DNA of 62,903 nucleotides, counting the filler, from Hausera hauseri (lineage: Eukaryota), in NCBI GenBank assembly GCA_046269625.1. It is 12 parts of 12 records of this genome, joined end to end, with 100 filler letters (N's around TTAATTAATTAA, not from the genome) between each part and the next. Parts side by side here need not be neighbours in the genome. Positions count along the whole stretch, not along the records: positions 13,676 to 17,768 come from JBJURY010766985.1; positions 17,869 to 25,481 come from JBJURY010004902.1; 10 more parts are not named here. One strand, written 5' to 3'. The translations under genes were made by a program, and so were the position numbers. Positions 13,676 to 57,829 of the stretch are shown here, in pieces. Numbering within the stretch: position 1 is the first letter of the stretch; every line of letters starts with the position of its first letter. The notes beneath the pieces were generated by a model. The model ran no database searches. It saw nothing but the letters and a program-made list of their open reading frames with translations, and was not told where the DNA came from.

Positions 13676-15800
13676 AAAAACACGTTCCAATCGCCGTTGG
13701 TATGTTTGTTGTCCCAATAAAAGTGGTCGGTCAGCGGTAGTATTACGTCTTTCACGGCTGGAATTGTGTACATGATTTCCTGCAGCGTTTGGAAACGATA
13801 ATGGAAACGGAAATTAAGCCGTGGTATCGCAATAATTCCATTAAACCATTGATTTGGATAGATGAATATGAATCTCTGATGTTCGGTGCGACCGATGAAT
13901 TTTACCTCTGCCACAAAATATTGCCTTTTAATGCACAGGAACGGCTCGTACCGGAACATAATAAATTCATCGGTCGATATCTGGGAGCAGCATGCCACTC
14001 ATGCAACTTAACAAGACGTGTGAGGCCATTCTTACCGGTGACCTTCCATAATTTCCGAGGTTATGATTGACACCATATACGGAAATGGGTCATCAACGGA
14101 TTTCCGCAGTGGGAACTGTTTATAATCCCAACAACAGTGGAGAGGTACCTGTCCCTGTCTGCTCGAATTAACCGGTTCTAGGTACGCTTCCTTGATTCAT
14201 TGCAATTTCTCAATGAATGACTGGCGAAGCTAGTAAATGCCTTGCCGGATTTGCCGATAACCCAAACACAGTTCCCCACACATATTGCATGCAACAAAGG
14301 TATATTCCCATATGACTTTGCTGTGTCGTAAGTGCGGCTTCCGACAGCAGATGAATTGCCGCAACAATGGGCCGGAATCACAAAGGATGAGTACCACAGA
14401 GCACAGGAAGCGTGGGCAGAGTTCGGCTGCAGAAACATGTTTGAGTATATGCCCCAGTATCTGAAACTGGATGTGTACTTGTTAACCGATGTGTTTCAGA
14501 CATTTCGTGCTAAGGCGTTGGCGGATGATAGGCTGGAGGCGCTAAACTTTTACTCCATACAGAGAATGAGTTGGGCATCTACACTAATGTCGCTGAACAG
14601 GAAAATTGAGCTGCTGCAAGACCCGAAAATGTACCGACTATTTGTTGTTGGTATTCTTGGCGGCATGACATTTTTCAACAAGCATCACGTAAACAGTGGT
14701 GACGATGATACAACATCAATGTTGTACATCGATGTTAATAACCTGTACGGCTGGGCGCTTTCGCAACCCTTTCTGTACGGTTTATTTAAATGGATAATGG
14801 ACAAACAAGAACTGGATACATTGCTGGTTAGTCTGCCAGCAGCAGCAAACACGACAGAAAGCAGCTCAGTCGGCTACCTAATAGAAGTCACACAACTGAT
14901 TCGTTCAATCCGCTTAAATCAGGCGCCGATATTCAAGGCGTACATTGATGGAAATTCAGAGAAACGAGCTGCAGCTTGTACAAAGTTCAAAAAGGACTAA
15001 CACAAGTTGAAAAATAATTATGTCTACGGCAAAACAGTAGAGAACCTCAAAAGCCACTCAGTGTGTGCCTATGTAACAACGAAAAGCGACTAGTTACGTA
15101 CACCAGAAAGGCTCAGTTTAGGAAGTCAATGCATATCACCGATGGATTGGTTGCAGTGCTGTTGAACCGGGAAGAAGTCGTACTGGACCGACCAAGCTAT
15201 ATCGGACAAGTAGTATTGGACCTGAGCAAGTTGCGAATGTACGAGTTCCAGTATCGCGACTTGACACGTTACCGGCAAATGTTCAACGGCTGTGAGATCA
15301 GTATCGTTGCCGGTGACACAGACAGCTTTTCAGTGAGCTGAAAAACGTCAATCTCCACCAATTGTTTCGGCAAATGATGGCAGATGGACTACTGGACACG
15401 TCCAATTACCTGCAGAATCACCTTCTGTATAGCAACGCCATCACGAACAAAATAGGCTGCTTCTCGGATGAAAGTAAAGGCCGTGCCAGATACCGGGAAT
15501 AGATATTCCTGCACCTAAAGTGATACAGTCTGTTGAAACGCTGTGGACCGAAAATGCTGGCAAATATAGTCCAGTTAGCCCAAACAGAAATTAATCACAG
15601 TGATTATCGCCGTGTCTATGAAGAAGGACAACCCGGTGGAGAGCAATAAAAGGCTTTTGTATCTCAAACGATCATCCGATCAATTGAGAACCAGCTGTAT
15701 GCTATTACTAACTCTAAAGTCGCTTTACCATGCAATGATGATAAGCTAAATTGGGTGGGGCGAAATAAAAGTTGGGCGTACGGACATTGGCGTTTGAGAT
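13676..15800 (+). mobile_element. Protein-primed family B DNA polymerase (Polinton/adintovirus-like), decayed and 5'-truncated
   Basis: FHNFRGYD (ExoII), YLKLDVYLLTDVF (ExoIII), YIDVNNLYGWAL (motif A), KLKNNYVYGKTVEN (motif B), AGDTDSF (motif C) and a Cys/His insert in the exonuclease. Many stops. Confidence 0.9.
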
Positions 15801-16508
15801 ATCACACGCTCAGTGCTCATAAACATTTCAATGCAAATATGCAATTCAGTCCAGCCAGATCATTGACATTTGTGAATTTTGTTTTACTTTAATCTGCTGT
15901 ACATGTTTTGTTATATATGATAAATAACGTGTTTGTACACTATTTTTTGTCTTCTGTTTTATAACAAGAAAATGTGGCTTAAGTTGGGTAGCATTACGCA
16001 AACGGTTATGCGGCACACGTCACCTATGTTGAAAGACCATTAGTGAAATATTTAGAACAATATTAATACAATATTACAGAAGCAATACCAAAACATAATT
16101 GATCGAAAATCAAGCTAAAACACGACACCAAAAATGCAAATAACTTTTTATTTTAAATTACAATCTAAAACCAAGTGTAAGCCAAAGGATATTCTGAACA
16201 AAACGTAATTGTTGAATTCCATAGTAGTTTGTCAAATTCGATTCGTTGAATATGTATATATCACATGCTTAATTTCTGTATAAAATTAGGCTAAAATTAT
16301 TTTTTCACCAATGTGCATTTCTAATTATTAGTCCAAATCAATGGAGTTGTAATGTTTATCAAAAATAAATTAAAAATTTCATTACTCAAAAACTCAAATA
16401 CTTTTTATTATTAATGTAAAACAACACAAGAAACTCAAATAAATTTTATTATATATCATAAACTAACAATACCAAAAACTAATCACAAACTAAAAAGAGT
16501 ATGTCTAT

Positions 16509-16901
16509 TTAATTCATTAGGGTAAACTTCCACAACCTCCACAATGACGATTTAATACCGCACGGTTCTTTGTATCTTTTCACTTTCATTGTCAGATATC
16601 CTTTTACATCTTCCGATGGCAAAACAGCTGTTTGTCCACTTGCACTCACAATTTTCGCATGTAAAATCAGAAACATCAAATCATTGTCCACTTTCTTCAT
16701 CGTTTTTTGCAATGCATCCAAGTCACTGTCACCTATTTTCTTTGTCAACAGACCATATTTTACCTGCCTCGTTTTGATCGGTGTTGATAATTTCACTTGA
16801 ACGGGGATTCGCAGGTCGTGTATATTGTAACCGTTGTACACTCTAGACTCTCTGAGGGAATACGGGCCGTACTTGGACTCACTATTGCTTTCTAAATACA
16901 T
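16509..16901 (-). CDS. Accessory protein of the pPolB element, possibly an OB-fold ssDNA-binding protein; convergent with polB
   Basis: Clear homolog at 51554-52009 (YSL..R.YNGYN.H.L, VKY.LL.K, AVLP.E..KGYLT.K.K..KE..GIKS..W...KF) in the same position relative to polB. The SSB function is inference. Confidence 0.7.
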   Translation of the reverse strand: MYLESNSESKYGPYSLRESRVYNGYNIHDLRIPVQVKLSTPIKTRQVKYGLLTKKIGDSDLDALQKTMKKVDNDLMFLILHAKIVSASGQTAVLPSEDVKGYLTMKVKRYKEPCGIKSSLWRLWKFTLMN

Positions 16902-17016
16902 ATTAAGGACAAAAAGTAATAATGAAATTGACTTACTATCTTAACTGCAACCTGGCACAATTGAACTTTCGGTGTTGTTGTTGATGTTGATGTTGTTGTG
17001 TTGTGATGAAATTTTA

Positions 17017-17052
17017 GAGACAAAGTGAAATGAAATGACATGCATATTTATA
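17017..17052 (-). promoter_or_regulatory. TATA plus initiator-like promoter of the accessory gene
   Basis: TATAAATAtgcATGtCATTTCATTTCacTTTGTCT is nearly identical to TATAAATAgagATGcCATTTCATTTCgcgTTTGTCT at 51508-51543. Confidence 0.7.
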
Positions 17053-17054
17053 CT

Positions 17055-17222
17055 AAATTTGTTCAAATCGGTTTATTTTCGTTGTAAATAATTGACCAAA
17101 TATGTACCAACCGGTTTGCCATCATTGTAAACAATAGGCAAACGGTCAATGAAGCCATTGACCAAATTTGTTCCAACCGGTTTGCTTTCATTGTAAACAG
17201 TAGATAAATGGTCAATAACGCC
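17055..17222. repeat. 66-bp tandem repeat (two copies plus a partial) with internal palindromes
   Basis: Units 17091-17156 and 17157-17222 each read ATTGACC...AACCGGTT...TTGTAAACA...GGTCAAT. Confidence 0.85.
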
Positions 17223-17243
17223 AGTGACGCCATCTGTATTAAG

Positions 17244-17717
17244 TCATTCATAGTAAATGCGTACAATTTCCATTATTGAGGATTTAAATTCTGGATATTG
17301 TGTTACGTTGGAAAAAAGAGCAGATTTGACATATGACAACAGGCCCATACATTAGGAATGTCCTATCCACCTTTCTTTCTTTACATAGTGCACAAAAAAC
17401 TATTAGTGTTGTACCTTGTTTGCTATTTTCTCTTTCAAGTTGTTGTTTAATTCACCACACAACTTTTCAAGGGTATCAAAGTAATCTGTTTCGCATAATC
17501 GGTGAATATACATTTGACTTATCGAAAGAATTAAAATTTCTATCGAGTCGCAATCTGTTGTCATCATCAATGATATTGACGCCAAATCTGCTTTGTAGCC
17601 AAAATAATCGCCGCGCACAATTAACTCAATTTCGAGTACTCGCCACCATTGTGTCGACTCGGAATGTGTTAATCCATCCAAATTTTGCAAATGCTTCAAC
17701 TGATCAATTATTTCCAT
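17244..17717 (-). pseudogene. Protein with a C-terminal IAP-type RING finger (C3HC4_3), frameshifted
   Basis: After the 104-aa ORF, shifted frames read CALCKERKVDRTFLMYGPVVICQIC and NVTQYPEFKSSIMEIVRIYYE*, a decayed C..C...CGH.V.C..C....CP.C...I..IVRIY pattern. TATAAATA lies upstream. Confidence 0.7.
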
Positions 17718-17949
17718 GATTATTATTAATGTTACTATAACCTACCCGTATTTATAGTTTTGAACCAANNNNNNNNNNNNNNNNNNNNNNNNNNNNNNNN
17801 NNNNNNNNNNNNTTAATTAATTAANNNNNNNNNNNNNNNNNNNNNNNNNNNNNNNNNNNNNNNNNNNNAATAAAACTTCTACCCGATAATTTTCAATTTA
17901 CAATGACAATATCCGTAACAACGATGTAAGAAAATATGTAATAAAGTTC

Positions 17950-25581: not shown

Positions 25582-28500
25582 CGATTTTATTTCTTTTATT
25601 TTTATTTAACTAGATGTTAGTTTCATCTACTTTTTGAACCATGTATGGACATTTATACTAGTCTGTCTAATTTTGGTGTCTTTCCTTTTTTATTCAGGGA
25701 TGTATAAAGCATGACCTTGTCTCCAGGTTTAAAGTCATGTGGTTTAACTTCTTCGTCATAACGATCTTTATATTCCTGTCGACATATTTTTATGTGACGT
25801 GAGGCTAAATTCCATACATATCCTAATTTTTGTTCTAATAATTCTTTATACTTCATGTCTTTTAAATGAGAGACGGGCATTTTAAAATCTAAATCAATCG
25901 GCATGAGTATCTCTAAGATACATCAAATAAATAGATGTTTCTTTTTGCAGGTTAAATTGTATTTCTAATTGCAAACAAGCATGGTTTGATATACTCGTCC
26001 CAATCGTCCTGTCGTTCGTTAACCATGGAAGCCAACACATTGGTTAAGATTCCATTAAATCTTTCTACTGCTCCGTTCGTTTGAGGATGGTGCGGAGTGG
26101 TTTCAACTGTAATATCTAAAATATTTTTGATATTTCCGCCATAACTTCTCCTGTGAAGTTCGGTGCTTGGTCCGTCAATAATTTGGTTGGCGCTCCATAA
26201 TTAAAAACAATTTCTTCGACAAAGGCTTGAGCAATAGTTTGGGCTTTTTGATCTGATATTCGTACCACAAATGGCCATCTAGAGAATAGGTTGACGAACA
26301 CTAGCATGTATTTATTTCCATTCATTGTCATAGGTAGCGGTCCTAGAATGTCCATTGCTGAGAATTCCATTGGAGCTGGTGGGCATTCCAATGGTTTGAG
26401 AGGAACTTTAATTTTTGAACCAGTGTTCTCCCTAGTAACACATATTGAGCAACTCTTGCACGAATTTTAAACGTCTTTAGTCATAGTGTGCCAGTAATAT
26501 TTTCTTTTCAATCTTCCTAAGGTTCCTTTTACTGATTGGTGTCCTCCTATTATACCATCATGATATTGTATCAATAACAATTTTATATCTTCTTGGGGAA
26601 CAACTACAACTGGTTTTCCTTTATAATAATAATATAATACATCATTCTTTATTTCATAATTTTCGACAAACTTTTTTATATTGGTATAAAGATCAATGTC
26701 ACTTGGTATTACTTTTCTCTTTAGGTATTCCTTGATTTGTTTAATTTGTTCATCATTTTGCAGTTTTTGTAATAAGGATTTCTCTTGTTCTATAATGCTC
26801 CATATAGCTGCTATGACGCCTGGTTTATCCGTGGATTCTTCGATTTGGTCTATATCTTCTGGTATTCTTGACATATAATCTGCATTAGCATTCGCTTTTC
26901 CCATTTTATATTCAAACTTCAAATCATATGGTTGAAGCAACATAGCCCATTTCATCAGCCGACTATTTGGATTCTTATGGTTTTTCAACCACTGCAGTGG
27001 TTTATGATCAGTGTAAATAATAATCGGTTTGGTTTCTGATAAATATTGACCATATTGTTCTAACGCATAAACTATTGCAAGTAATCCACGTTCAATTGTT
27101 GAGTAATTCTTTTCATGTTTTCTTAATTTTCTTCCTCCGAACGATATAGGATGTTCTTGTCCCTGGTCATCTTTTTGAGATAAAACTACTCCAATTCCAA
27201 CTTTACTGGCATCCGTTGCTAAGATATATGGTTTTGACATATCTGGGTATGCTAATATAGGTGGAGCCAATAGGTTATCTTTTAACTGTTGATAGGCCTT
27301 TTGACATTCTTGTGTCCAAACAAGTTTAGAATTTTCTTGTAATAATGCATGCAACGGCGAAGCTATCTGTTGATAATTTTTAACAAATTTTCGATAATAA
27401 CCTGTGAGGCCGAAAAACTTTCGGACTCCTTTAACTGTCTTAGGAACTGGAAAATCTTGAATTTTATTTACTTTTCCAATTTGAGGACTGATACCTTATT
27501 GGCTTACCGTATGGTTTAAGAAGTCTACTTTGGTTCGAGCAAAACAGCATTTCTTTAAACTAACCTTTCTTCCTAGAAGTGCACATCTTTCTAACATATC
27601 TTTGAGGTGTTAATCTACGCACATACTGATAGATCCATCTTTCTTTTGTACCATTACAATAGGAGCTGCCCATGGCGAATTACTTGGTCGGATTATGTCA
27701 TGTTGTTTCATTTCAGCTATTATTTCTTTTGCCCTTTCTCTTTTATCATAATTAAGCCTGTACGGTCTTTTTTAATAGGAGTCTCCATTCCTTGCTTTAA
27801 TTTAATTTTATGCTTGATAACTGGTATTACTCCCATATCGTATTCATCTACAGTGAATACATTTTCATATTGGTGCAATATTTTTATTATACCTTCTTTT
27901 TCTACATCTGTTAGTATGCTGTCCTTTCCAAACAAATCATAATCATTCCAATTAATAGGAGTCTTAACGGGTTTCGATATTTTCTTATTTTTATTATGAT
28001 TACTTTTCAATCTATTTATTGGTTCATTTTCTAGCCGTATTCCGCTTTCTTTTCGTGATTTGTGTCGTTCTCTTTCCATAAATTCGGACAATTCTTGTAC
28101 AGTGGAGATAATGGCTTCTGTTGCTTTATTGCCTACATCTTTTGTAGGGTATATGTAAGCGATTCTTGTGCCTTTCCTTACTAATTTTGATTTATTTGAA
28201 ACATTGGCTATTCGAACAATTACCTGTTTTTCTCGAATATTATCGATTGCATGAGCAACCCATAATTCACTTTTATCCATGAAGTTTACATTTGGTTCAA
28301 TGTAGACATCTCCCTCATCTCGACCTTCTACTAAAACTTTAAGTACAACCTCTGTCCTAGCTGGTATTAATACATCTTCTTTGATAGATACTGTATCCTT
28401 TTTCTCTTTCTTAATTCTCCGATATGGTTGGATTTGTTGAGTTTCTAAATTTATACACATATTCTTCAATTTTGCTAATGCATCGCATCCCAGTATAGCT

Positions 28501-28937
28501 TCAGCTACTAATTCATCGGCTATTCTAAATTCTTGTTCGAATTTTTGATTAAGGACTCTTGTTTCGCATTTGATTAAATCTTTTACATATACTTTAGTCC
28601 CGAATGCTCCAATATTCGTAATATCCTCTGTGGGTTTTTGTAACTTCTTTTTTAATTGCTCCGGCAGCTGTTTTCGTGAAATTATTGAGGCTGATGCTCC
28701 TGTATCGCTTACTTTGGTGATGGGGTATCCATCTATCCATATTACTGTTCTTGGTATGACTTTACTCCCATCTATACTAGTTATTAATTCCCCTTTTGGA
28801 GCGGATGGATAAAACGTCAGCTTCATATGCTTTGGGTCATGATTGTCTATGTCACTTAAACAGTGTATATCAATGTATTCATTAGGAGACATGAAATATT
28901 GTTGTTGTTCCAACGGATGTTCATTCCACCTTCTCAT
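25582..28937 (-). mobile_element. Ty3/Gypsy pol: protease, dUTPase-like domain, RT (core deleted), RNase H, integrase
   Basis: DTGASAS protease; SPWAAPIVMV; LATDASKVGIG, YTDHKPL and ANADYMSR (RNase H); H-H-C-C and MDILGPL...TDQAPNF...PHHPQTNGAVE (integrase). The domain order is Gypsy-type. Confidence 0.95.
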
Positions 28938-30301
28938 TTGAGGAATATCTGATAGTAAAGTTCTCCGCTTTTACTTCTGGCGGTAGTCAAACTCAATGTC
29001 CTTTTAGTATCTTTAATAGATTTAGACCTTTTTCCTATCTCCTTTGGTGGAGATTTATTCTCATCATCCTCCTCTTCCTTATTTTTATTTTTATGTTTCC
29101 ATTCAGCATCCTTTTTAATCAGAAAACAGCTAGCTATGAATGGGATCAATGCATAAATAATTTTCCATGTACATCCGGCAGCTTGTTTTATGCCATAGCT
29201 CTTAGTTATCATGGTTAAAATAGCCTTTATGAAAGCAAAAATGTAATAAAATCCTAGCCATCCGGAATTAAATTGGCCGAACAACATGTACCATTCCCAT
29301 GCTGTCGCAAATATATCCTTAGCTATTTTCTTCGCATATTCTGGTCCCATCAAATTTTCTCAGTTAGCTTTGCCAGTATGATCGGCTAAACCTCTCATTG
29401 CCATTTCTGTTAAATCTTTCTGTCTTTGTTGATGAAACATCATCATTCTTCTATGATTTTCCATATCTTGCTCAGAGTATACACCCATCTTTACTAAGTC
29501 CGTTAGTGGCTTGTATGTTTGTTCTGTTTTCAAATTAATTAAACTAATCCTCCGAGGTGGAGTAATCTGTTCTTTCTTCGGCATCCTTATCCATAAATTA
29601 TCGCTTAGTCGATATGCTGGCGACATAGTGTATGTACAATTTTGATGTACATATGGTTTTTCTGCCGGGTCTAATAATATCCGAGTAATTGGTTGCAGAA
29701 AACGTGGTTTCTCCTTATACCAAATAGGTAACTCCATGGTACACTCAGTTGTTGGTCTCAATTTAACAGCTACTTTTGTGCATTCGAAAGTTACAAGTGT
29801 CTCACCCATCGTTCGAGCGAACTTTCCCTCTGCATCAGGAGATTCAGCTGGATCCTTCATTATTCCGTCCGTTATTGCCGATAGATATATTCGGTTCCTG
29901 ATTATCTCTCTGTTCAATTTACAGTCATTTAGTATTATCTCTCGATACATAGCGTAAATGTTTTCTTGTTGAAAGTGATAAATAAAATCAATCTTATTAT
30001 CAAAGTATAGATGAGGCTTTATTTCCGATTTATGAATTTTCCTTTTGGCTTTTGTTATCTCTGTTGTGGATAAGAATATTCCTTTATAATTTGTTCGAAA
30101 TACCGTCTGATCACATCTCCTGGTATCACTTTCTAATTTAAATCTCATTCCATCTTGAGGATTCGCTGAATATACTATGGTAGGGGTCTCGATCATATCT
30201 GATACTCGGTCTAATCTACTTTTGGATATTTCTTCTTTATACATTCGTCCTTTTGTTTCATTAAATTTTCCTACCTTTAACAAAGCTAACTGACATTGAT
30301 C
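28934..30301 (-). pseudogene. Chuvirus/herpes gB-like (class III) envelope glycoprotein, C-terminal half with membrane anchor; one in-frame TGA at 29360-29362
   Basis: CKLNREI...GKFARTMGETLVTFECTKVAVKLRPTTECTMELPIWY...FLQPITRIL...NCT...PAYRL...W, then aromatic membrane-proximal and hydrophobic segments (WEWYMLFGQF...YIFAFIKAILTMI; IIYALIPFIASCFLI) and a charged tail. The family call is from motif recall. Confidence 0.72.
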
Positions 30302-30401: not shown

Positions 30402-31085
30402 GCATTGGAAATTCATAGTAGAAAATGGCATAGTAAAGACACGAAAAGGCAAGATATGGATACCAACGGATAAGAGGGAAGAAATGATAAAGCAATGCCA
30501 CGTCATGCTATCTCACGCCGGAATAGAAAAAGTAACAAAATACATAAGCAGTAACTACGACATTACAAACATAAAAGACACCGTTAAGGAAGTCATTGGA
30601 CACTTGTCAAAGAAATAAGACCGTGACAACGGGTACAAAGGAAGAGACCGTGAGACTCAATGCAAACGAACCATTCGAGAAGATCTACATTGACATTTGT
30701 AGACCGTTAAAAGAAACCTGGAGGAAGAAAAAATATATATTGGCGATCATAGACCAGTTTAGCAGATATATATCACTATCGGCAATAGCAAAACAACACG
30801 AAGGAACCATAAAAGACGCCGTGCTAAAGACTTGGATTCGCAAATTCGGCGCACCGAAAGAGATACACACAGATTGCGGAAAAGCATTTGAATCTAAGGT
30901 ATTTAAAGACATGACGGCGTCAATGGACATCAAAATGTGATATTCAAGCCTGCATAATCACAATGCCAATGGCATAGTGGAAAGGCAATTCCGAATAATT
31001 AGAGAATATGTGGGTGCGACTCTCCACGATCGACAACGAACAGATTTGGGAGAAATACTATCAGAAATCCTTTTCCTACTCGTAT
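30402..31085 (+). mobile_element. Gypsy-type integrase fragment
   Basis: CHVMLSHAGI, DTCQRNK, PFEKIYIDI, IIDQFSRY, FGAPKEIHTDCG, NANGIVERQF. Confidence 0.88.
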
Positions 31086-31109
31086 AAGGATGGTACTACC
31101 AGGGAGACT

Positions 31110-31985
31110 CGATCTACTAACAAGTATATAAAAATCATTCAGCATAATTACAATTTCAATTGTATTACGTTCCCATCAACAATACACGAAATCGAAAGAT
31201 TTCGGCGAGTTAACCAGATGTCCATCAGTATCTTTGGATGGGATGAAACGGATAAATTCTATCCTTTAAAAGTGTGCGGAGTGGAATTAGAAGACCATAG
31301 GGACAGACAATCGTGAATAGAAGAATTTCAATGGGGTAAAATACTTTGAGCGTCTAGTGAGATTCCAAATAACAAAAAATGAGACAAGAATTAAAATTTG
31401 CAAACGATGCTTACCCCGTTGCTACGACAATCATTGCATTAGAACGAAATTTTGCACAGAAGATTATATTGAATTCAAAGAGTTTGAAAAAAATGCGTAA
31501 AATGTCAATTGTCGTATATAGTGACTTCGAAGCCATCCTATGTCCAGTTCGGAGTTGTAGTCAAAATCCGCAACAAAGTACCACGACGATATACCAATAT
31601 CACAAACTATAATTATTTCGCATGTATGCAAAGGGAATGGACAAGGAGCCACATTTTTTTAGGAGTCCAAATTCAGCACTTCTTTTTATGCAGCGCTTAG
31701 AAGATATGGCACAAAAGATTGAAAATATGCGGCATAAAAGTATGGTGATATCACCGAAAGAAGAATATGAATGGAGAAAGGCAACAACGTGTTACGTGTG
31801 CTCAAAATCATTCAAGAGAGATAATCATAAAGCTCGGAAGCCCTGCCAAGTAACAGGCAAGTATAGAGACGCAGCATGCAGTGCGTGCAATCTATGCTGC
31901 AGAACTGTTACATCTGTGCCCGTAATCTACCACAATCTTAATGGGTACAACTCTCATTTCATAGTCAGAGAACTACGTTGTGCGA
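31110..31985 (+). mobile_element. pPolB N-terminal/exonuclease fragment, same family as 35218-39033
   Basis: QHNYNFNCITFPSTIHEI, IVVYSDFEAIL, CYVCSKSF...GKYRDAACSACN and IYHNLNGYNSHFI are colinear with 36260-37170. Confidence 0.85.
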
Positions 31986-32914
31986 CCAATAATGAACCGG
32001 AATGAATAGTAAAAAGGGTAATGAAGCAGAACTTGGGGTCGAATTTTAAGTTTAAATATATTAGGTGTATAAAACATATATTGCTTTAATCAATCATTTG
32101 TATTTTCATTATATTTTGTAATTTTTTGAAAAAGGTGAACAAAACATCTTTTCTCCAGTGGAATTTCGAAACGTCATTAGATTTTTTGTCTTAAAAAGTT
32201 CTAACGGAATATATTATTTCACAGTTGAATGATGTATACGACGAATATAGTCCTTCTAAACCCACTATTATGGAACATGGCCGGCAAGATGTTTTTGATG
32301 AAGAAAGTTCAGAGCGCCCTAAAGAAATCTCCGATTATGATATTGAAAATTTTGAAAAAATTGTGAGAAATGACCTTCGTATTGCATGCAAAATGCTCTA
32401 TGAACAACTTAATATCACTAAGGGATTACTAAATTCAATTGTGAAAGAAATTAACTGAAATTAACAAAACTGATTTCAAATTGTTCTCATTCTCACCAGA
32501 CTTGGCACCAAGCGATTTTTCTTGTTTGCACATTTGAAAAAAAACATCTCAGAGGTTGGTAATTCGATGATAAGGGGCGTTACCACAAATAGTTGAAGGC
32601 TTTCTTCAAACAAGGCCACCATATTTCTTCGAAACTGGGTTCCAAGATTTGAACAAGCGTTGATACAAGTGTACATAGAATCATACATAGAGGATCATAC
32701 ATAGAAAGGTAGTTGCCTAGATATATTTAACTTTCTATTTATTCAGTAATAAACGTTACTCTTCATCTATTTCCCTTTAATTCCGGCTCATTAGTGGACG
32801 AACAACGTATATAATTTACTAATAATAGCCGTAGTAATATTCTTATAAATGTATTAATTTGTGGATTGTAAAATATTCAGTATCGTTTTAATTTTAACAA
32901 TTTTATTTTAACAA

Positions 32915-35217: not shown

Positions 35218-38200
35218 ATGTATAACAGGGTTCAGTATTATATATACCCTATATGTGAGGTAGTGTGCCAATCCAATTACGAAGATTTTTACAATGTCTA
35301 TTAGCAGCACTTGATTTCCTTCACCAAGTCGAAAAAACAAATATTCAGTACCAGTATGCCAATGACGACCTTCGTGCCAAAGGAAAATCAAAGATGCAGT
35401 TCATATATGTATTGCACGTGTGTAATACACAACCCTCAGAATTGCCACAATACTATGAGGAGCTATTATGGACACAAATTCAATAGGATCACTTATTATA
35501 TCTGCTCAGGATGTGAGGCTGTATGTGATGTAGAATACATACAGTTTTACGAAGATCACAAACATCATTTGACTGACTTCGCATCAAAGTCAAAGAAGAT
35601 CATATTTAATGAACATAAACCTGCAGTACATCATACAGTACCACAGCCTTCAGTACCAGAGCCTGCAGTACAGCCAGATGCAGGACTGAAACGCGCATCA
35701 GGCGTAGCGGCTCTGTCAAAAAGCTAAAGACAGCGGCTAGTTGATGCTGCAGAATTAATGAGGAAATACCGCAAATATGTCATTGAGGCAACTGGTCAAA
35801 CAATCATCTAGGAGTTCCTGGAGTACACAAAAGAAGAAACTCAGTGGATTCTTTAGGATAATATGACTGAACTCAAAGCCCTTAAATTCAATATGAAACT
35901 GGAGGCCACATACGTCAATGTTGATGGCGAAGAGTCCAAAAGGGCCTTCAAGACCCATATTGGAAAACACCAATATAGTGGAATGGCTTAATGAGGAACA
36001 TGGAAAGCTGACCCGTGAAGCCGATGAGAGCTAGGATAAGAGGAGTGGATGGACTCTGTCAATCATCAAGAGACTGATTATGTATGTGCACAAGTACTCA
36101 CCCATGCGGGGCAGCTCCTATATACAACTTCCGGAATGGATCACTAATAAAAAGGCACGTTTCAATGTCCTTAGTGATGATAACAAGTGTTTCATGTATG
36201 CCATTTTATGTAAACTCATACGGAATCAAAAACATGCTGCTGATCGAGTTTGGCTATATAAGAATGTGCAGCACAACTATGACTTCCAGTGTATCACATT
36301 CCCTACATCCATAGATGAGATCAAGAAGTTCAGTCGAACCAACAATATATCAATCAATATCTTTGGATTGGATAAGGAAGAAAAATTCAATCGTCAGCAG
36401 ATATGCGCTGTTGAATTGGAAGATCATAGAGATCTGCTCCTATTAGACGATGATGAAAATAGGCATTTCATCTGGATAAAGAACTTTGAACGTCTAGTCA
36501 GATCACAAATTACGAAACATAAAGAAAGAATCGACAATATAAACGATGCTTGTCTTATTTCAGCGACAAGTTAGCTGTGAAGAAGCTTGTAGAGCACAAG
36601 ATGTGCTGCAACAGCAATTACTGTGTAAGGCCAGAATTTCCCAAGGAGGACTATATTAAATTCAAGGAGTTCGAGAAAAAGATCAAGGTCCCAATAGTTA
36701 TCTATTCCGACTTTGAGGCTATCCTGCGTCCAGTTCAGAGTTGCAGCCCTAATTCTCAACATAGCAGCACAACGGAATACCAACATCATGAACTCTCACT
36801 GTATTGCATGTATGCCAAAGGACTGGACAGTGCACCATTTCTATTTAGAGGTCCAGGTGCAGCAGCACATTTTATGAAACGACTTGAAGACATGGCTCAT
36901 AGGCTTGAAAGCATGTTTCAGCAGCATATGGACACAATGAGCATGTCGAAACAGCAAGAAGATGAATGGCGCAAGGCAACAGCATGTTACTTGTGCGACA
37001 AGTCCTTCACAAAGGAAAATTGGAAAGTCAAGGATCACTGCCATTTTACAGGTGCATACCGAGGGGCAGCATTCAATAACTACAATCTTCGCTTCAAAAC
37101 ACGTACATATGTGCCTGTAGTATTCAAGAATCTCAGTAGTTGTGATTCCCATTTTATAATCCGAGAATTAGCCAACATTGTTGGTAATATAGATGTGATC
37201 CCATACAGTGAGGAGAAATACATCACTTTCACCAAGCATGTGGGCCGCATTAGACTTCGTTTCATAGACAGCTTCCGCTTCATGTGCTCGTCACTGGATA
37301 ATTTAGTGAAGATCCTCACTGCCGAAGAACTCAAGGAGACGAAGCGGTTTTTTCCCATTAACTTTGACTAGTAAAGAGGAAAGGAGAGTTTCCCTACGAC
37401 TATATAACCTCATAGGAAACACTGGATAATATCTCATTACCGCCTAAGGATGGCTTTTATAGCCCGTTGTTGGACTGTGATATCAGTAATGAGAAGTACC
37501 AGCATGCTCAGAATGTCTGGATGGCATTCCAATGCGGGGCATTAGGGGAATACAGCGACATATACCTCAAGACGGACGTACTGTTGCTGACAGATGTCTG
37601 AGAGTTTTAGGGATGTTACAATGAAGATACATGCTTTGGATCCGGCTCATTTCATTACGGCTCTAGGGATGAGTTGGGCAGATATGCTGAGATATACTGG
37701 TATTAGGCTGCAGATCATTAAGGATTATGATATAATTCTTATGATCGAGAGAGGCATTAGAGACGGATTATGCCAGGCCATTCACATTTATAGTAAGACC
37801 AACACAAGTATATAGTCCAGTATAATCCATCCAAGGAATCCTCATATCATACCTGGATTCCAACAACTTGTATGGATATGCAATGAGCGCCCCATTGCCA
37901 TATGATAACTTCAAATGGGCCGAACATCCTGAAAACATCCATATATTGTACCTGGATCCCGCTGGAGATACGGGCTATACACTGAAGGAAGATGTGGAAT
38001 ATCCTGCTACCATCCACGCAAGGCATCAACAGCTGCCTTTCCTCCCTGAGAGCAGGCCTCCACCCTATGGAAAGCATAGAATACTGCTTTATTATCTGGG
38101 TAATAGAGAGAGGTATGTAGTTCACTACATCAATCTCCAGCAGGAAGTTAGATATGGACGTCGTATTACCAAGATCCATAGAGTCCTACAGTTAAGTTAG

Positions 38201-39033
38201 TCCATGTGGCTGCAACCGTACACAGATCTCAATACAAAGCTGTGGAAAAATGCCAAGAACGACTTTGAGAAAGACCAATTCAAGCTTTACAACAACTCGG
38301 TCTTTGGCAAGACGATGGAAAATATCCGCAACAGAATCAACATCGAGCTAGTATGTGACTGGAAGCGGGCAAAGAAGCTTATTGTCAAGCCCAACTTCAA
38401 CAGCAGCACCATATATACGGAGAACTTGGTGAGCATCCATATGCTGAAAATATCCTTGGTATTTAGCAAGCCCATATATGTGGGTATGGCAATCCTTGAC
38501 CTATCAAACACCTTAATGCATCATTTCCATTACGATATAATGGTCCCGAATTCAAGTTCATGCAGCTGATGTATATAAATACTGATAGTTTCATCTACCA
38601 GATCCATGCAGGTGATATGTATAAGGACTTTGCCCAGTTGTCCCAATATGTGGATACCTCGGACTATCCAAATTATTCAATTGCCAACAAGAAAGTCCTT
38701 GGGAAATTCAAAGGCGAGGTGAATGGGGCAATAATATCGAGATTTGTGGCTCTCAGATCTAAAATGTACGCCCTAGATGTATGTGGCCAAGTAAAGAAGC
38801 GGGCAAAATGGGTTCAAAGGGTTACATTGGTCAAGAAGATTGGCTTCAATGACTATATGAGAGTTCTGCAGGAGCAGACTCACATCATTTCAGAGATGAA
38901 ACGGATCCAATCTAGGGATCATAACATCCAAACTGTAACCTTACAGAAGTAAAGCCTAGATTGGATGGACGACAAGAGGCAGATCCTCAGCAATGGGATA
39001 CACACACTACCTCACGGACATTTGGCGTTGTAA
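35218..39033 (+). mobile_element. Nearly full-length protein-primed DNA polymerase B with N-terminal extension, decayed
   Basis: RSGWTL, GSSYIQLPEWI, DNKCFMYAIL, YSDFEAIL, KDHCHFTGAYRGAA, FIDSFRFM, YLKTDVLLL, YLDSNNLYGYAM, KLYNNSVFGKTMEN, YINTDSF, RSKMY, DDKR. Confidence 0.93.
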
Positions 39034-39176
39034 ATATTGTTATTCTTTGTTTAATAAATTTTGTATTTAGAAATATTGTATTGTATTTTTGATAAAGTAA
39101 TGTTGGATATAGGATAAGGCCAAGTAAAACTAAGTAACTACAATATAGGTTAAGACCAACTAATTGCATAACACAT

Positions 39177-39551
39177 TTATTTAGTAACAATATAACTTTG
39201 ACATAACACTAAACACTTCTTATAAGCACAATGTGAAACATGTTCACGATAAATACATGCAATGTTTTTTGGTACAGTTACCAATTTGTTACATTCATGT
39301 GCACATATTCGCAATTCTGGAAGTGCGCTATTAAATATCTTCTTTCGCCCATCAGCATGATCTTTGACATAGAATATGGATTCATTTATATCACACATAT
39401 TCCCAATATCTCGCATAATGCAATCTCTGCAAAAGTGGGTATTATATTCTTCCCAAGTCAGTTTGTGATGATGGTGTGTCAAATAAGCATTTGTTGCTTG
39501 AGCCTTGTTTGTACAACAATGTAGTGTAGGCCTAAAAATAGCATAAATCAC
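39177..39551 (-). CDS. Cys/His-rich small protein convergent with polB
   Basis: 124-aa ORF with CRDC, CAHEC and a His run. It shares an AT-rich terminator-like gap with polB. Function unknown. Confidence 0.45.
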   Translation of the reverse strand: MIYAIFRPTLHCCTNKAQATNAYLTHHHHKLTWEEYNTHFCRDCIMRDIGNMCDINESIFYVKDHADGRKKIFNSALPELRICAHECNKLVTVPKNIACIYREHVSHCAYKKCLVLCQSYIVTK

Positions 39552-39738
39552 ATGTACTATACTAAAATNNNNNNNNNNNNNNNNNNNNNNNNNNNNNNNN
39601 NNNNNNNNNNNNTTAATTAATTAANNNNNNNNNNNNNNNNNNNNNNNNNNNNNNNNNNNNNNNNNNNNCTCCTTTAGCTATTAGGGCTATGATTATCTGT
39701 GTTTCCTCTGAGAGTATATCGGATGGTGAATATATTTC

Positions 39739-42700
39739 CTATTTTATATTTTTGATAATATCTTCAGATTGTGCTACTAATTGTAGATAATGACGGTTCA
39801 GTTTTGGATCTCTAGCATAGTTTTCTAGGTTTAGCTGGACTGAGCTATCCAGGTTTAACCAGTCTGTTGTTTGGTCGAAATTCCTAATAAAGACTTGGTT
39901 TTCTTGCCTGTTTTCTTGTGATCTTTTTTTTTCATAGTGTTCTACTTGTTTCGACAGTGATAGAAATGGGTTCGCGATAAAGTTTGGTGATTCACTAGAT
40001 TCTATTTGTCTACAACTATATTCGACTGTGTGATCAACGTTTCCTTTATCAGTATCAGATAAAAAGGGCTTATTTATTGATATTTCCTTCATTCTTGCTT
40101 ATTTTCGACGTTTTAAATGCTTGGGTTTAAGAATTGTGGCTTCTTCTGTTATCGTATGTCCTTCAGTCGGAGTAATTTCCTCGTCGTTATTTGATTGTTC
40201 GGATTTTCTTATGTGAAAAATTAAATTGACTAGGATCAGTAACAAAAACCATATAGATGAGATTTCCTGATTAGTATTTGTTGTCGGAGGAGCAGCTTCG
40301 GCTGTTTCGAATAATATAAATGGTATAGCAAGTAGCATTAGTGTTGAGTAAGTAAATCCGTTGCTATCTATGTTAAAGTGATTTTTTCTTAATATTGGCT
40401 TAATGACGGTATCGTTTTCCTTGTGGGTGTTAGGATTTGTAATTTCTTTCTGTACTGTTTGCTCGGTTATTTTAATAGGTATGAGTTCTTGTGGACTGAT
40501 GTTATCGCTGGCCATTGTTTGGTCGTTATTGACGTTGGACTGAAATGTTTCGTGCTGTGCCTGGACTACAACTGATGGTTTATGATTATCGTTTCCTTTC
40601 GTCTCATCGTGGTCGTCGTCGCTATGCGGTGTCCTCACGTTTTTCCATTTTGGATGATTCTCTATTATAGTCGATGCACAGGATACGTTTCTCGAAAACA
40701 TCTAATCGTCGTAGGTTCTTCGTTATATCTGTTGTCACTTCCCCTTCATTATTTGATCTTAGTCGACGGGCACATATTAACCTTTCTCGTTCCTCTTTGA
40801 ATGGTCTAGCTATTTCTACCCTGTTATTTAGCTCGCAAATTATAAGATGGTACCTTAGTGCATTAAATTTGCCCGAAAATCCACATGCATCCACCATGTT
40901 AAGCTTATCAATATCTTCGTAATCCAACGGGGTTAATGACGTATTTACATCCAGATTCAGATACTTATTCCACACTATTTGTGCTTCTTCTTCTTCATAG
41001 GCATCTATTTCTTCTTGAATAAGGTCATCTTTTATTTCCATTAGTGTATATGTCATTGAACAATTGATCATAAATGAATCTGTTTGAATTTTATTTATTA
41101 GCTCTTCACCGTAACTCTTGAATAGTCCAAGGCATCTATCGGCCAGTTTGACAATTCTTTTAGGAGGTTTATCTGCTATTAATTCCAGGGATATTCTTTG
41201 GAGAAGACTGATTATGTCGGCTACGGGAAATAATAACGGTTTTACTCGTAAACAACGAGTGATCAGCACACGTTCTCTATGGCTTCCGACAAATAAGGGT
41301 CGATATTTAACTTTATCTCCATACACTATCCTTTCTTCGTGGGTTAACCGGTATTTTTCTATTAGTGGGGCGAGTGACCGAAGGCAACGTATTATCTGTA
41401 GTGTAGAATGGGTTTCTAATCGGGCTTTTAACAGTAATTCATGTTTTCAACATATGGGCTCATTGGTTGGTATCCCCATTATATCGCTCCGGATTTCTAA
41501 CATGGTATTGGTAGGTTATAGCCATATAGGTTGTATGGATATTTCCATTAAAATTCGTCGAAATAGGTAAAATCCCTCATAGTACACTTCGGCTTGAAAA
41601 TCACTTAACTGGCAGAATAGTAAACTATTGGCTGGAATTTTATAAGAAGTATATAAGATGCTAGCTCTCAGAAGTAATTGGTATTTATAATCTGATTCTT
41701 TAAGGTTTATTCTGGTTTCCTGTTTTAGTCGATCAAAATATGGTTCGTATAAGATTATATATAATTTCACGAAGTCTTTTCGGTCCTCGTTTGGTAATTG
41801 ATCTATACTATCTCCTAACAATAAACAATTAATGATATCCCTGACCCATTCACGAAGGGTTTCTGCGAATATATGAGGTTTTATATCTAATTACATCGTT
41901 ATCAGACGAGTAATCCTATGAATCTTTTCGGATAAACTTTGGTCTGTACATGTAATCAAACATTTCATTTTTTAATTCTGCGTCGTTTTTCGAAGATTTT
42001 ATTACATTTAGTGTGTCTGACGGAATAATTTGGGGTGAAAATTTTTTATTCTCACGAATGGTTTTATCACGGACGAAATCTTCTCATTCTATTTTAAAAG
42101 GCTTGGCTATCTCTTGGTCGTCATTCAACATACAAAATAGTAGTCGATACCATAATGCATTCAGATTGCTAGATAGTCCTCTGATGTTTATTTAATTCAA
42201 TTGATCGATTTCTTCGATGCCTTCTTTAGTTAGAGGTGTATCTTTGTCACTACATAAATAGTTGTTCCATAGTATCCGGGCTTCTTCTTTTTCCATTTCC
42301 TCTATTTCCATCTTGCCTATTTTATCTTTTATTGTCATTAATGTATATGTTAACCAACTATTGATAATGAATGAGTTAGTTACTTTTTAATTCACTAGTC
42401 CTCCACCATAATTCTTGAAAAGTCCAATGCACTTTCGCCAAACTTCTCAGCTCTTTCTTGAGATCCGTAAACGCTGCATAACGGATGTTTGCTGTAATAG
42501 AGCAAGTATATTTACAACAGGGATTCGTGGTACTTCTTTTCTTAAAAAGTGAGTAAGAAAAATTCGTTATTGTGAGATTCCNNNNNNNNNNTATATCTAA
42601 TTACGTCGCCATAAGAGAATAGCCGAATATTGTCAATTTCCTTTTAATGTAAACATATTTATCGTCATTCATTAATTCACATCTTTGCAGGTCCCAATAA

Positions 42701-43606
42701 AAAGTACGGGCGCAGCGTATTAGTTCCGATGGAGAGTGCATATGGGAGTTTTGATTTAATATTAGCTGTGTTTTTCAAAGTTCTTTTAGGGTCTCTGTTA
42801 ATTCTTGTTGGTATAAGTATTCTTCCGTCAGTTGATTGGTGTATGAGGATACTAGTGGAATTTCCATATTATTTGAGGGAAATTAATTTGGTAAGCAATC
42901 TATGTCGTTACTATTGTTGAGAATTTTAGCTTCTCTTTTATTGAGATGTTCATTCCAAATAAATGCTGGGATATGTATTATCTTCTCTTTTATTGAGATG
43001 TTCATTCCAAATGAATGCTGGGATATGTATTATCTTCCAAAATCCATTAGTCTCGTCGTCACCACTAGGAAGTTTACCTAGCATAAATAATGAGAATATC
43101 CATAGTATTATTGAGATCCATGAGGAATTCCGGTGTTGCGGTGTGATCTCCGCTGCGTATGTTATATTAATCATAGATATTATACATATTCCCGTAAAGC
43201 GTAAGGTCCCTAATGAGAACGATGAATAACCTTTTATTCCTGAGGATTCCCGTTTTTTATCCTTCTCTTGAAGTTCTTGAATCTGCACGGTTCTTGTTTC
43301 GTTTGCAATTTCGTCCAAATATTTAATACTGTTGCTTGCAAACTGTAGCTGATCAATCTTTATCCATTGCTCTGAAGAGCAGTTGCTATCGAGAGGTTGT
43401 CTCATACTTCTCTTCCAAGCTCGTTTTGCCTCTTCTACTCCACTAATGAGTTTTCGGCCTCTTATATTTAGATTATGGTGCTTATACATCTTTAATGCTC
43501 GGCTGGCGGTTACATAGTCGTGATTTTGGGATCTTCCTGGGTTGGTTAAATCGGAAATTGTAAAATATACTTCTTTACAACTTATCTTTATCAGGAGTTT
43601 ATTCAA
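39739..43606 (-). pseudogene. Unknown, internally duplicated polyprotein-like coding region, broken into ORFs of 100-234 aa
   Basis: All long ORFs are on the minus strand with no introns evident. A module at 40760-41326 is repeated at 42060-42580, and there are two signal-peptide plus TM-like pairs. Confidence 0.55.
42931..43034. repeat. 52-bp tandem duplication
   Basis: TTCTCTTTTATTGAGATGTTCATTCCAAAT(A/G)AATGCTGGGATATGTATTATC at 42931 and 42983. Confidence 0.92.
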
Positions 43607-44000
43607 CGGGGGTAATGCATCAGANNNNNNNNNNNNNNNNNNNNNNNNNNNNNNNNNNNNNNNNNNNNTTAATTAATTAANNNNNNNNNNNNNNNNNNNN
43701 NNNNNNNNNNNNNNNNNNNNNNNNTATAACTTATAATAATTTAATACTTTTATGCAGTTTGAAAATAAAAGAAACAATTAAAGGGATTTGACAGAAAGTT
43801 GTTAAGCGGGCCAAATAAAATTGGAGGAACAAAGATAATAAATAATAGGGTTATCAGAATTAATGAAAGACTAAATTACGAATTTAATTTACTCCGCAAA
43901 TATACCATATCGTAACGTTGAATCGTAAAGTTATAAATTTGTCAACACCTTTAATGAAAGCAGTTCCACTGAAAAAATTTACATCAGAGTTCAAAGTATA

Positions 44001-50750: not shown

Positions 50751-51477
50751 CTTATGTATGGTCAACTTTTGAATTATAAAAATGATGTTGATTGGAACTG
50801 GCTTTCTGTCTCAGGTCAGATACTTACGACAGAAAGTACATGTCGTTTCCAGGTATATTTTCTTACACATTTTGTAATAGATATAAGTTCCATCTATTGA
50901 ATGCGATTTTGATATTTTAGTGATGCATTTGTCTTTTAGAACATGTGTGGTGCTTTGGTCCAATTTCTAATTTAAAATATTGTATAATGACGTGTATTCG
51001 TGCATATCACTTTCAACTATATAAATCCAATTGTGTTACTTTTTGGTTGTCTGGCACAGAATCCGTGAAATTTTTATTGTTTTGCCATTTTTTAAATTTT
51101 CATCCTCAACACTTTCTGATTGTAAAAACGAAATCCTAATGTCGTTGTTTGCGTTCATGATTATTGTCACGGTTGGAAGTTGGTCGCCATAATGATAGTT
51201 CCCTTGTTAGAGTTCTTGTAAGAATATTAATCTGTATATCTTATATTTTTCGTCTAATTGCCATTTGTATGCGGTATATATTTTGTATGTGGTATATAGG
51301 GTTCAAATACACCTATTCTACGACTCTCCAATTTGGCCGAAGGTACNNNNNNNNNNNNNNNNNNNNNNNNNNNNNNNNNNNNNNNNNNNNTTAATTAATT
51401 AANNNNNNNNNNNNNNNNNNNNNNNNNNNNNNNNNNNNNNNNNNNNTTATATGATACAATACTCACAAAGTAAATGT

Positions 51478-51543
51478 CTATTGTTTACAATGAGAATAAA
51501 CTTTTGATATAAATAGAGATGCCATTTCATTTCGCGTTTGTCT
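51478..51543 (+). promoter_or_regulatory. Conserved promoter of the accessory gene (TTGTTTAC motif, TATA, initiator-like)
   Basis: CTATTGTTTACAATGA also occurs in the 66-bp repeats at 17091-17156 (minus strand). The TATA block matches 17017-17052. Confidence 0.7.
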
Positions 51544-51553
51544 TCTTTAAACC

Positions 51554-52009
51554 ATGACCTTGCAAAACAATTCTGCAGACGACAGTCTCTCAAAAAAGCC
51601 ACGGTACAGCGAATATTCGCTCAAAAATTTCCGATTGTATAATGGATACAACTTACATTATCTGCACAACGCTATTCAATTGCCATTGACAGAAACGGTC
51701 AAAATCAAACCGGTGAAATATAGTCTATTGGTGAAAAGATCAGCGACGATGATTTGAATATGATGGAAGACACAATTAGAAAAGTTGACAGTGATTTGAC
51801 GTTGAGTAAGGATATCCGAGATACATTGTCGATTTTTCTCAAAAAGAAATATGGCGAAAATTGTCAATTCACATGGCGGAGAAACAGCAGCAGCCGTTTT
51901 GCCACCGGAAGGAGCTAAAGGCTACCTGACACTGAAGCTCAAAGGATTCAAGGAAAGGAGCGGCATCAAATCCCCAATATGGAAAATGCGGAAGTTTGTT
52001 ATGATTTAA
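51554..52009 (+). pseudogene. Homolog of the 16509-16901 accessory protein, frameshifted
   Basis: YSEYSLKNFRLYNGYNLHYL...VKYSLLVK...AKIVNSHGGETAAAVLPPEGAKGYLTLKLKGFKERSGIKSPIWKMRKFVMI*. Confidence 0.8.
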
Positions 52010-52314
52010 CTGATTTACTTTGGGTATTTTTGTGATTTTAGTTTTCTCTGATCAATAAATAAATGTATTTGCGTTACATATCTTGTTTTCTCGTGCAAGG
52101 TTATTGTTTTACGTTTACTTCTATCTTACTTAATAATAATAGGTTATGTAAGTAACCGAAAACAAAACACAAAAGACACTGAACAAAATATGTTATTGAA
52201 ATATAAAAAACAACATACATAGGATAATTGTCAGTGATTGTAACAGTAACTGAACTGAATTGAACTGATTTGTCTGAACCGACAGAGCACCGATTGTTTG
52301 GACGTGCCTTTATT

Positions 52315-55300: not shown

Positions 55301-55690
55301 ACTCGACGTTGTTATAATAAAACCGAGAGTAAAAATTTTTATTATTCACCAACCACGGCTTTTTTGGGTGTAGTTGGCGATTTTTTCGGCCAGCTTTCCT
55401 CATATGATGGCAATGAAATCTTTGTAATATTGAACTGCTCGATGTGACAGGTACCATTGTTTCCTTTCATCTTCAACGTTTTCAAATTCTGCAATTGCAT
55501 AATATTGCACTTTGAACTTGTGGTGTTTGAATTTCTCCACTTCCGTTTCTAACCGGTTGCTCACATGAGCGGGTACATGCCTCACTTTAATTGCTAATTT
55601 CGACGACATGTTTACTTTTATGTCCACGTACTGTGGTGCCACGGACTCGGCCGCCACCACAACCCAGCTGCAACCAGGATATGTAGATTT
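52315..55690 (-). mobile_element. Protein-primed DNA polymerase B, same family as 13676-15800, decayed
   Basis: DDYCFIYSI, VIYADIEAIL, FHNFRGYD, FLDSLQFL, YLKLDVYLLADVF, YININNLYG, KLENNSLHGKTVEN, AGDIDSF, NDDRR. Confidence 0.92.
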
Positions 55691-56492
55691 CCTATTATCG
55701 GTTCACATCGATTTCGTACAAAGATAAAAGTCAACCCTTTTCCTTTTAGAGAAATATGATCTTTGTGTAAATGTCATAAACGGAGTATTAACCTTTCCAG
55801 AATTCAATAATTACCCATTATAACAAACTTCCATCCCATGTATATTGTGGTATGAATTCATTTCAATTTATTTACATTTTCTTGTAAACGGTATCGATAT
55901 ATCCACAGAATTATCCGATTGACATTATTTTATTGGAGTGACAAAAACTGAACAAACAAATGGTGTAATTCATTTTGTTAAAAGCTATTACACCGAATTT
56001 CATTAAAATCTGTGTTTTACACTAAGGAACGTGTTTTGATATCATTTTATTTCTCATTATTCATCAACTCTTTGAAAACCTTATGATTTTAGTCAATATC
56101 GCTCATAGTTGGAATCAGGACTATTTGGTGAATTACAAAACGGCATTTCATGTAAACGTTATTCCTACACGGCAGATAGCACTAGAATTTAATGAAAGAA
56201 AGTGCTTCAAATTCGAGAAAGCATGATTCCAACGTTTACTTTCACAAACCCTTTCGGAGACGAGGAGAATATGTCCACTGAAACTTCTCCTATTTGTATA
56301 TTAATAATATGAAGAAAAAATGGAATTTATGTATAGATTACGTATAGAAAAATAATTGTTATTTGATGTAATAAATCTTCCTTTGTTCAATTTTGTGCTG
56401 CTATCTAAATTTTGGGAAGTTTCGTTAGAATTTCGTTATTGTTGAATTTTTTACCTCGTATTTTACTTTAATTAAATTTTATCTCTACGAAT

Positions 56493-57629: not shown

Positions 57630-57829
57630 GCAAATGGTATCAAAAAGTTTCCCTGGGTACTGAATAGCAGCCAGTCTGCTAGGCACATCTTCCTTTCATG
57701 ACCCAAGGCTCTTTAAGGCAATACGGCATAATAATAAACCATGAGAAAACAGAAGGTCAATGGGAAGGGAAACATTAAAATTCAAAATTTTTCACAAAGT
57801 AAAACCAAAATAAATGCATCAGCAATAAT

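Follow-up and report, generated by a model that had tools for sequence, protein, structure and literature searches.

The names Maverick, Polinton and adintovirus are used interchangeably for elements of 15-20 kb (10.64898/2026.06.19.733378), and degraded germ-line adintoviruses occur across animals, with IAP homologues as cargo (PMC8502044). The latter source also places the label SSDBP on two Alpha-PolB contig maps, apparently those of Hydra and Stylophora, an assignment made from the page layout. Endonuclease inserts are reported in Maverick polymerases, both in the Sf Mavericks (PMC5803895) and in the protein-primed DNA polymerases of family B (pPolB) of nematodes and oomycetes termed pPolB2 (10.1101/2023.08.22.554363), and Polintons keep the catalytic cysteine and histidine of the vOTU domain, whereas every known bidnavirid and adenovirid has other residues in their place (PMC11161782). 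We present here a locus from Hausera hauseri (GenBank assembly GCA_046269625.1), found in a 62,903-nucleotide stretch of 12 short contigs joined by spacers (the window). The locus (copy 1) contains a pPolB gene, polB, on the plus strand, a convergent accessory gene on the minus strand, a short tandem repeat and a minus-strand RING gene remnant. It is likely a dead internal fragment of a germ-line-integrated linear double-stranded DNA virus of Polinton/adintovirus type, belonging to an unnamed pPolB clade.

Copy 1 occupies positions 13676-17768, one whole contig of 4,093 nt between assembly spacers, so that both ends are assembly breaks and neither is an end of the element. The 3′ part of polB (13676-15801, plus strand) matches Pfam family PF03175 (DNA_pol_B_2; E = 1.3e-13) and corresponds to residues 481-1235 of an intact relative, the protein P0001. 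This polB is dead: it consists of four segments in three frames with eight stops, lacks about 50 residues relative to P0001 and is 64-74% identical to it across segments. The accessory gene, an open reading frame (ORF) of 130 amino acids (aa) at 16509-16901 on the minus strand, faces polB tail to tail, as an earlier first-pass annotation of this DNA had proposed. Between the converging 3′ ends lies an AT-rich region (15802-16508; 27% GC) with AATAAA on both strands. All copy 1 genes are broken, polB by stops, frame breaks and a deletion, the accessory ORF by an internal deletion, and the RING gene by the loss of four of its eight zinc ligands. The GC contents are 44% for polB, 39% for the accessory gene, 35% for the RING gene and 34% for host sequence.

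A second copy (copy 2), on another contig of the window (51447-58412), has a polB with 77-78% DNA identity to that of copy 1 and the same tail-to-tail accessory gene. Its promoter and frameshifted accessory gene lie at 51476-52009 on the plus strand (the gene itself at 51554-52009). Its polB pseudogene (52313-55630, minus strand) covers P0001 residues 136-1235, including the vOTU region, in nine segments with eight stops; the first 135 residues are missing, and AT-rich DNA of 29% GC follows. The accessory genes share 45-55% amino acid identity, in pieces, and the 303-nt spacer of copy 2 is weakly homologous to the AT-rich region of copy 1 (score 45, reached by none of 500 shuffles). The accessory promoter block of copy 1 (17018-17096, minus strand), which contains TATAAATA at 17045-17052 and an upstream TRTTTAC element that we take to resemble a forkhead site, is kept in copy 2 at 51476-51543. 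The local score of this match is 49; none of 2,000 shuffles scored above 36, and the best of 558 control windows reached 37. By itself TATAAATA, with 12 sites in the window, is not significant; its aligned position alone counts.

Differences between the copies fall mostly at third codon positions, with a dN/dS of 0.23 in polB (649 codons compared) and 0.19 in the accessory gene (65 codons). Purifying selection acted on both genes before decay, and the low ratios argue that two lineages diverged while active and decayed after separate insertions. Duplication after decay was also considered, one stop being common to both copies, and was rejected (dS 0.70, dN/dS 0.23). The first-pass annotation had described the polB/accessory pair and its promoter as an element-level unit kept in a second copy, and this description is upheld by two copies of the pair that diverged under purifying selection and by a probable third, intact pair (see below). 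An intact 378-aa ORF (56493-57629, plus strand) lies 0.8 kb from the lost 5′ end of copy 2 polB; it has no Pfam or PDB match and is probably a host gene.

A homologue search with polB gave 58 matches. The top match, P0001 (1,235 aa, 69% identical), is located on a 10,114-nt contig and contains a complete set of exonuclease and polymerase motifs plus an endonuclease-VII insert; a scan of prokaryotic genomes with its sequence found nothing. The 58 homologues and three window copies were aligned over 816 columns and placed in a FastTree phylogeny with a midpoint root and without external references. Copies 1 and 2 cluster with P0001 (support 1.0) inside a clade of 34 proteins, P0001-P0034 (support 1.0). 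No clade member has an informative name; two named animal proteins, from Mytilus and Haematobia, fall outside the clade, which is about 30% identical to the named animal homologues. The structure model of clade member P0004 (predicted local distance difference test [pLDDT], 84.5) matches phi29 polymerase with a Z score of 25.9 and a root-mean-square deviation of 3.3 over 524 aligned residues, the next-best solved chain reaching a Z score of 13.4. Among predicted viral structures, those closest to it belong to bidna-like, adintovirus and MELD PolBs (16-24% identity), with bidna-like ones best. An alpha/beta domain, a candidate for the PRD1-like terminal-protein domain expected at the pPolB N terminus, is modelled at residues 85-197; the fold search covered other parts of the model.

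An HNH/EndoVII insert is present in 31 of the 34 clade members, and some members carry an N-terminal Cys/His domain on polB. The vOTU-type catalytic cysteine is kept in 23 and the histidine in all of 25 clade rows; both residues are present in copy 2, and the region lies beyond copy 1. The domain name is taken from motif position and PMC11161782, with no fold match behind it.

A profile scan of prokaryotic genome bins yielded 74 stray contigs (L001-L074) that encode polymerases of this class, about 30% identical; 71 of them are nearer to the outgroup than to the focal clade. Of the 74 loci, 17 longer ones were scanned for neighbouring genes (137 ORFs of at least 110 aa). These 17 outgroup loci contain an rve integrase (11 loci), a Pox_A32 ATPase (8 loci), an adenovirus-type protease (3 loci), a clear double-jelly-roll capsid (2 loci) and a RING gene (L021), and no homologue of the accessory gene. 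The presence in prokaryotic bins of eukaryotic Polinton-type polymerases, some of them beside a full set of integrase, ATPase and capsid genes (L012, L018 and L053), reflects contamination of the collection, and L047 looks chimeric. Small genes beside polB in four loci (L018:8743-9087, L053:8449-8793, L021:13165-13728 and L026:13024-13368) resemble other single-stranded-DNA-binding folds by eye, for which Pfam and PDB gave no confirmation.

Instead of a Polinton in the strict sense, the clade might represent a linear replicon without integrase, perhaps also without capsid or in segments, that enters genomes by accident only, such as a MELD virus, a bidna-like segment or a nuclear linear plasmid. 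All 34 clade matches are on contigs of 2.7-22 kb (median, 5.2 kb), while 5 of the 24 outgroup matches are on contigs of 0.8-233 Mb, and the P0006 cluster has 5 of its 14 members on contigs that measure 5.70-5.73 kb. The best fold matches are bidna-like PolBs, and in four outgroup loci (L001, L002, L004 and L065) an integrase faces polB tail to tail, in the place held here by the accessory gene. Short contigs, however, are expected from fragmented assemblies; other P0006 cluster contigs measure 11.3 and 12.6 kb, and 12 of the 15 P0004 cluster members, among those listed, are on contigs of 10.9-16.3 kb, near the size of Polintons. The vOTU residues intact in the clade are inactivated in every bidnavirid known so far, and finding two independent insertions within a single 63-kb window fits an integrating element. 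Bidnaviridae share the convergent layout, and their NS1 superfamily-3 helicase and parvovirus-type single-jelly-roll capsid were not seen among the 145 window ORFs, whose contigs are short. On this evidence we consider an integrase-less replicon improbable.

[quoted passage not shown] If true, the integrase-for-SSB pairing would break the usual split between protein-primed polymerases and OB-fold SSBs, and the window fossils would be the first tie of the 34-member clade to an animal host. Should full-length members lack an integrase or capsid, the clade would be a new virus or replicon group.

We prefer a Polinton/adintovirus-type virus whose remaining gene set probably lay beyond the contig. 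Of the Polinton hallmarks, the double-jelly-roll capsid, minor capsid, A32-type ATPase, Ulp1-like protease and rve integrase with chromodomain had no match in either the copy 1 or the copy 2 contig (145 window ORFs searched), both of which are cut. The first-pass annotation had likewise seen no capsid, packaging ATPase or integrase in either copy and had suggested that missing genes may lie outside the short contigs. Because contig ends and truncation explain these gaps, the missing genes are no evidence for the plasmid-like replicon that it had also entertained; its reading of an endogenised element related to Polintons and adintoviruses is supported. The outer flanks of copies 1 and 2 share no similarity, no terminal repeat was found in them, and no element end is assembled. 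With integrase, capsid and termini outside the assembled sequence, Polinton membership cannot be closed.

Two further pPolB sequences are present in the window. The first (35240-39040, plus strand) is a decayed pPolB of the same class and another lineage, which groups with the Haematobia-type protein; it has the N-terminal Cys/His domain in common with P0001 (E = 7e-13), twice in tandem, and is faced by a Cys/His-rich ORF (39180-39566, minus strand). The second is a pPolB fragment (within 30402-32000, plus strand) directly downstream of an rve integrase ORF (30575-30937; E = 1e-15). The N terminus of this ORF is Gypsy-like by eye, which makes a nested insertion as likely as a Polinton integrase.

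A full HMMER scan of 1.84 billion representatives with the 130-aa accessory ORF gave four matches, one of them genuine, the 149-aa protein P0100 (phmmer E = 3e-27, 52% identity). The other three (P0101-P0103), which are long bacterial repeat proteins, were dropped, and a word-indexed homologue search and an Atlas search with the ORF found nothing. The second member of the P0100 cluster, P0104, is intact at 149 aa, and its contig, like that of P0001, measures 10,114 nt. P0001 and P0104 are therefore very probably a third, intact polB-accessory pair on one contig.

In the ESM Atlas, P0100 is nearest to Nucleocytoviricota clusters, with language-model features at 0.91-0.94 and a predicted-structure TM score of 0.66-0.70 over 133 residues (17-149), predicted models standing on both sides of the comparison. 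Some of these clusters carry DUF5871 (15-30% of members) or DUF2738 (10-13%). On these models the accessory protein is quite likely an SSB of the DUF2738/DUF5871 type found in nucleocytoplasmic large DNA viruses (NCLDV), which lends independent support to the SSB-like label of the first-pass annotation. T7 gp2.5-like SSBs exist in large DNA viruses according to PMC4889955 and PMC11253617, whose available portions do not name the two DUFs; genes of DUF2738/5871 occur in algal Polinton-like viruses (10.1101/2022.07.28.501842), and DUF2738 is expanded in Hydra genomes (PMC7642931). Relative to the NCLDV and Mriyavirus proteins, the accessory protein is shorter (149 aa versus 176-407 in Pfam-bearing clusters) and is paired with a protein-primed polymerase. 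P0100 and P0104 match no Pfam family up to an E value of 10, and thus neither DUF profile.

Compared with P0100, the copy 1 ORF is about 12 internal residues short, lacks the normal N terminus and has a disturbed 5′ end; judged by these losses, it is probably also a pseudogene. A candidate 45-nt GT-AG intron (16892-16936, minus strand) overlaps its ATG; it was proposed from the sequence and a 43-nt host intron and has no counterpart in P0100 or copy 2. Domestication of the 130-aa ORF by the host, as a gene still at work, is very improbable. No other frame of the decayed element is open and the promoter of this one is intact, but the missing internal residues and N terminus argue against a working gene, and at about one break per 65 codons in the adjoining polB, 130 codons are estimated to stay open by chance about 1 time in 8. 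The 5′ part of the copy 1 gene also contains a (CAA)n-rich stretch that is absent from copy 2 and P0100.

Upstream of the accessory promoter is a 66-bp tandem repeat (17091-17228) of 2.1 copies at 84% identity, with a partial third unit at 61%. Each unit holds the TRTTTAC element, which copy 2 has once, upstream of its TATA box. The simplest reading, which we think probable, is a local duplication of the promoter's upstream element. The first-pass annotation had described palindromic repeats; the tandem repeat is real, and its palindromy is marginal and weak, with self-complementarity at p = 0.023 for unit 1 and p = 0.31 for unit 2 and folding z scores of -1.6 and -1.0. The units could alternatively be palindromes that serve as origins or enhancers, like baculovirus hr sequences, or could belong to a terminal repeat, as the nested inverted arms of unit 1 might suggest, together with the better folding of the unit pair relative to a null that keeps the tandem duplication (p = 0.017). 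This is unlikely: unit 2 and the partial unit show palindromy within chance, the units sit between two genes rather than at an end, only one unit is present in copy 2 and the 29 nt beyond it are unrelated, and protein-primed replication begins at termini. Upstream of the promoter block, the copy 2 contig runs for just 29 nt more, in which the repeat does not go on. Repeats and RING gene cannot, then, be called conserved in the second copy, as had been claimed; because neither is seen in the copy 2 contig, which ends there, the two-gene pair with its promoter is what remains of a supposed conserved four-part module.

The RING gene (17244-17717, minus strand) is broken into a 104-aa N-terminal ORF and, in other frames, a C-terminal IAP/MYLIP-type RING remnant. 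It has its own TATAAATA (TATA box) at 17749-17756. The best Pfam match of the remnant is zf-C3HC4_3 (E = 0.051, not significant), and 5 of 9 PDB matches are cIAP1, cIAP2 or MYLIP RINGs (best E = 0.35, not significant); the C-terminal piece alone matched nothing in PDB. The remnant resembles IAP/MYLIP E3 ligases in these matches and in its C-terminal position. It differs in the retention of only 4 of 8 zinc-ligand positions, split over frames, and in an N-terminal part of no known family, in which Pfam and PDB found no BIR domain. A RING gene had been reported here earlier; what is present is its remnant, with a putative link to the element.

With no homologue of the N-terminal part, the status of the RING gene as cargo is guessed from strand, promoter and decay, and we lean moderately towards an IAP-type E3 cargo of the element. 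The gene may, with lower but appreciable probability, lie outside the element, as a decayed host retrogene or the cargo of another element beside the end of the viral fragment. Its GC content is closer to that of the host than to those of polB and the accessory gene, the copy 2 contig ends before the RING position, and no homologue of the gene was found. Yet it lies on the same strand as the accessory gene with no junction visible between them, its TATAAATA resembles the accessory promoter, it has decayed to a similar degree, and RING and IAP genes occur in Polintons (L021 and adintovirus maps).

Several points weigh against the interpretation of the locus as a whole. Integrase, capsid, ATPase, protease and terminal repeat are unseen for every member of the focal clade, the window contigs being cut, and the three loci nearest the clade (L014, L015 and L047) have no informative neighbours. 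Searches of Pfam, PHROG and PDB with the accessory protein gave no match, a phage search with it was also empty, and none of the 74 related loci contains a homologue. Its AlphaFold2 model, built from a three-row alignment, has a pLDDT of 36 and is unusable, which makes a fold search meaningless. That DUF2738 and DUF5871 are T7 gp2.5-like SSBs of large DNA viruses is an assumption, and the probable linkage of P0001 to P0104 is deduced from equal contig size. For the N-terminal part of the RING gene, no homologue was found, including on the 10,114-nt contig, by a search that is insensitive.

If the locus is a Polinton/adintovirus-type fragment, its polymerase would have used its own terminal-protein domain as the primer for replication at the ends of the genome, with copying by strand displacement, and the convergent gene would have supplied a small OB-type SSB to coat the displaced strand. 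The two genes would have been host Pol II transcription units ending in the common AT-rich region. The 66-bp repeat would have arisen by local duplication of the upstream element in the SSB promoter. The RING gene would be a putative IAP-type E3 cargo.

Among known systems, the clade stands closest to Polintons and adintoviruses (Polintoviricetes) with a PolB of the bidnavirus-related class that bears an HNH/endonuclease-VII insert. It resembles them in its pPolB with vOTU-type Cys/His and HNH/EndoVII insert, its animal host, its degraded germ-line copies and its convergent layout. It differs in forming a separate clade at about 30% identity, in the SSB-like gene that faces polB instead of an integrase and in the N-terminal Cys/His domain on the polB of some members. 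It may correspond to Starrett's Alpha class or to Jeong's pPolB2. The first-pass annotation had foreseen that these genes might already be catalogued in ordinary Mavericks, and this holds by half: SSDBP and IAP labels stand on adintovirus maps, as occasional cargo, with a likeness by label. Compared with the literature, each part has precedent; the one tension is with PMC4889955, according to which protein-primed systems normally use SSBs unrelated to OB folds. The available portions of 10.1101/2024.03.25.586562, 10.64898/2026.10.13.758929, PMC4981718, PMC3630058 and PMC12085832 contain nothing specific to this gene set, and no published description of it was found in the portions of the literature available; the clade may be catalogued in parts of the PMC8502044 supplement.

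A decayed Polinton-type fragment is itself ordinary, since the kind of element is known and its cargo types are catalogued. An animal genome is now tied to a polymerase clade that has good support and no name and that was known from short environmental contigs only. Intact P0001 with P0100/P0104 provides a testable candidate for the pairing of a protein-primed polymerase with a giant-virus-type SSB.

Host genes in the window encode Sec3, an RNA polymerase subunit, a ubiquitin-conjugating enzyme and dynamin, and mariner, piggyBac-like and Gypsy elements are also present. Together with the 43-nt host intron, in a contig neighbouring copy 1, these point to an animal with compact gene structure. 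Six ORFs of the window have no counterpart in the protein collection. The contig of the dynamin-like gene contains a 49-bp tandem repeat of 4.3 copies (59539-59745). Several long ORFs at 39669-43624 (minus strand) have signal-peptide-like and transmembrane stretches and match no Pfam family; within this region a 175-nt stretch is duplicated (40961-41134 and 42258-42431), and there is also a 52-bp tandem repeat. A Gypsy-type long terminal repeat retrotransposon (25582-30301, minus strand) carries, upstream of its protease, RNase H and integrase, a gene whose product is a fusion glycoprotein of the Monjiviricetes (chuvirus-like) kind (Pfam PF24664; E = 7e-40 and 2e-13).

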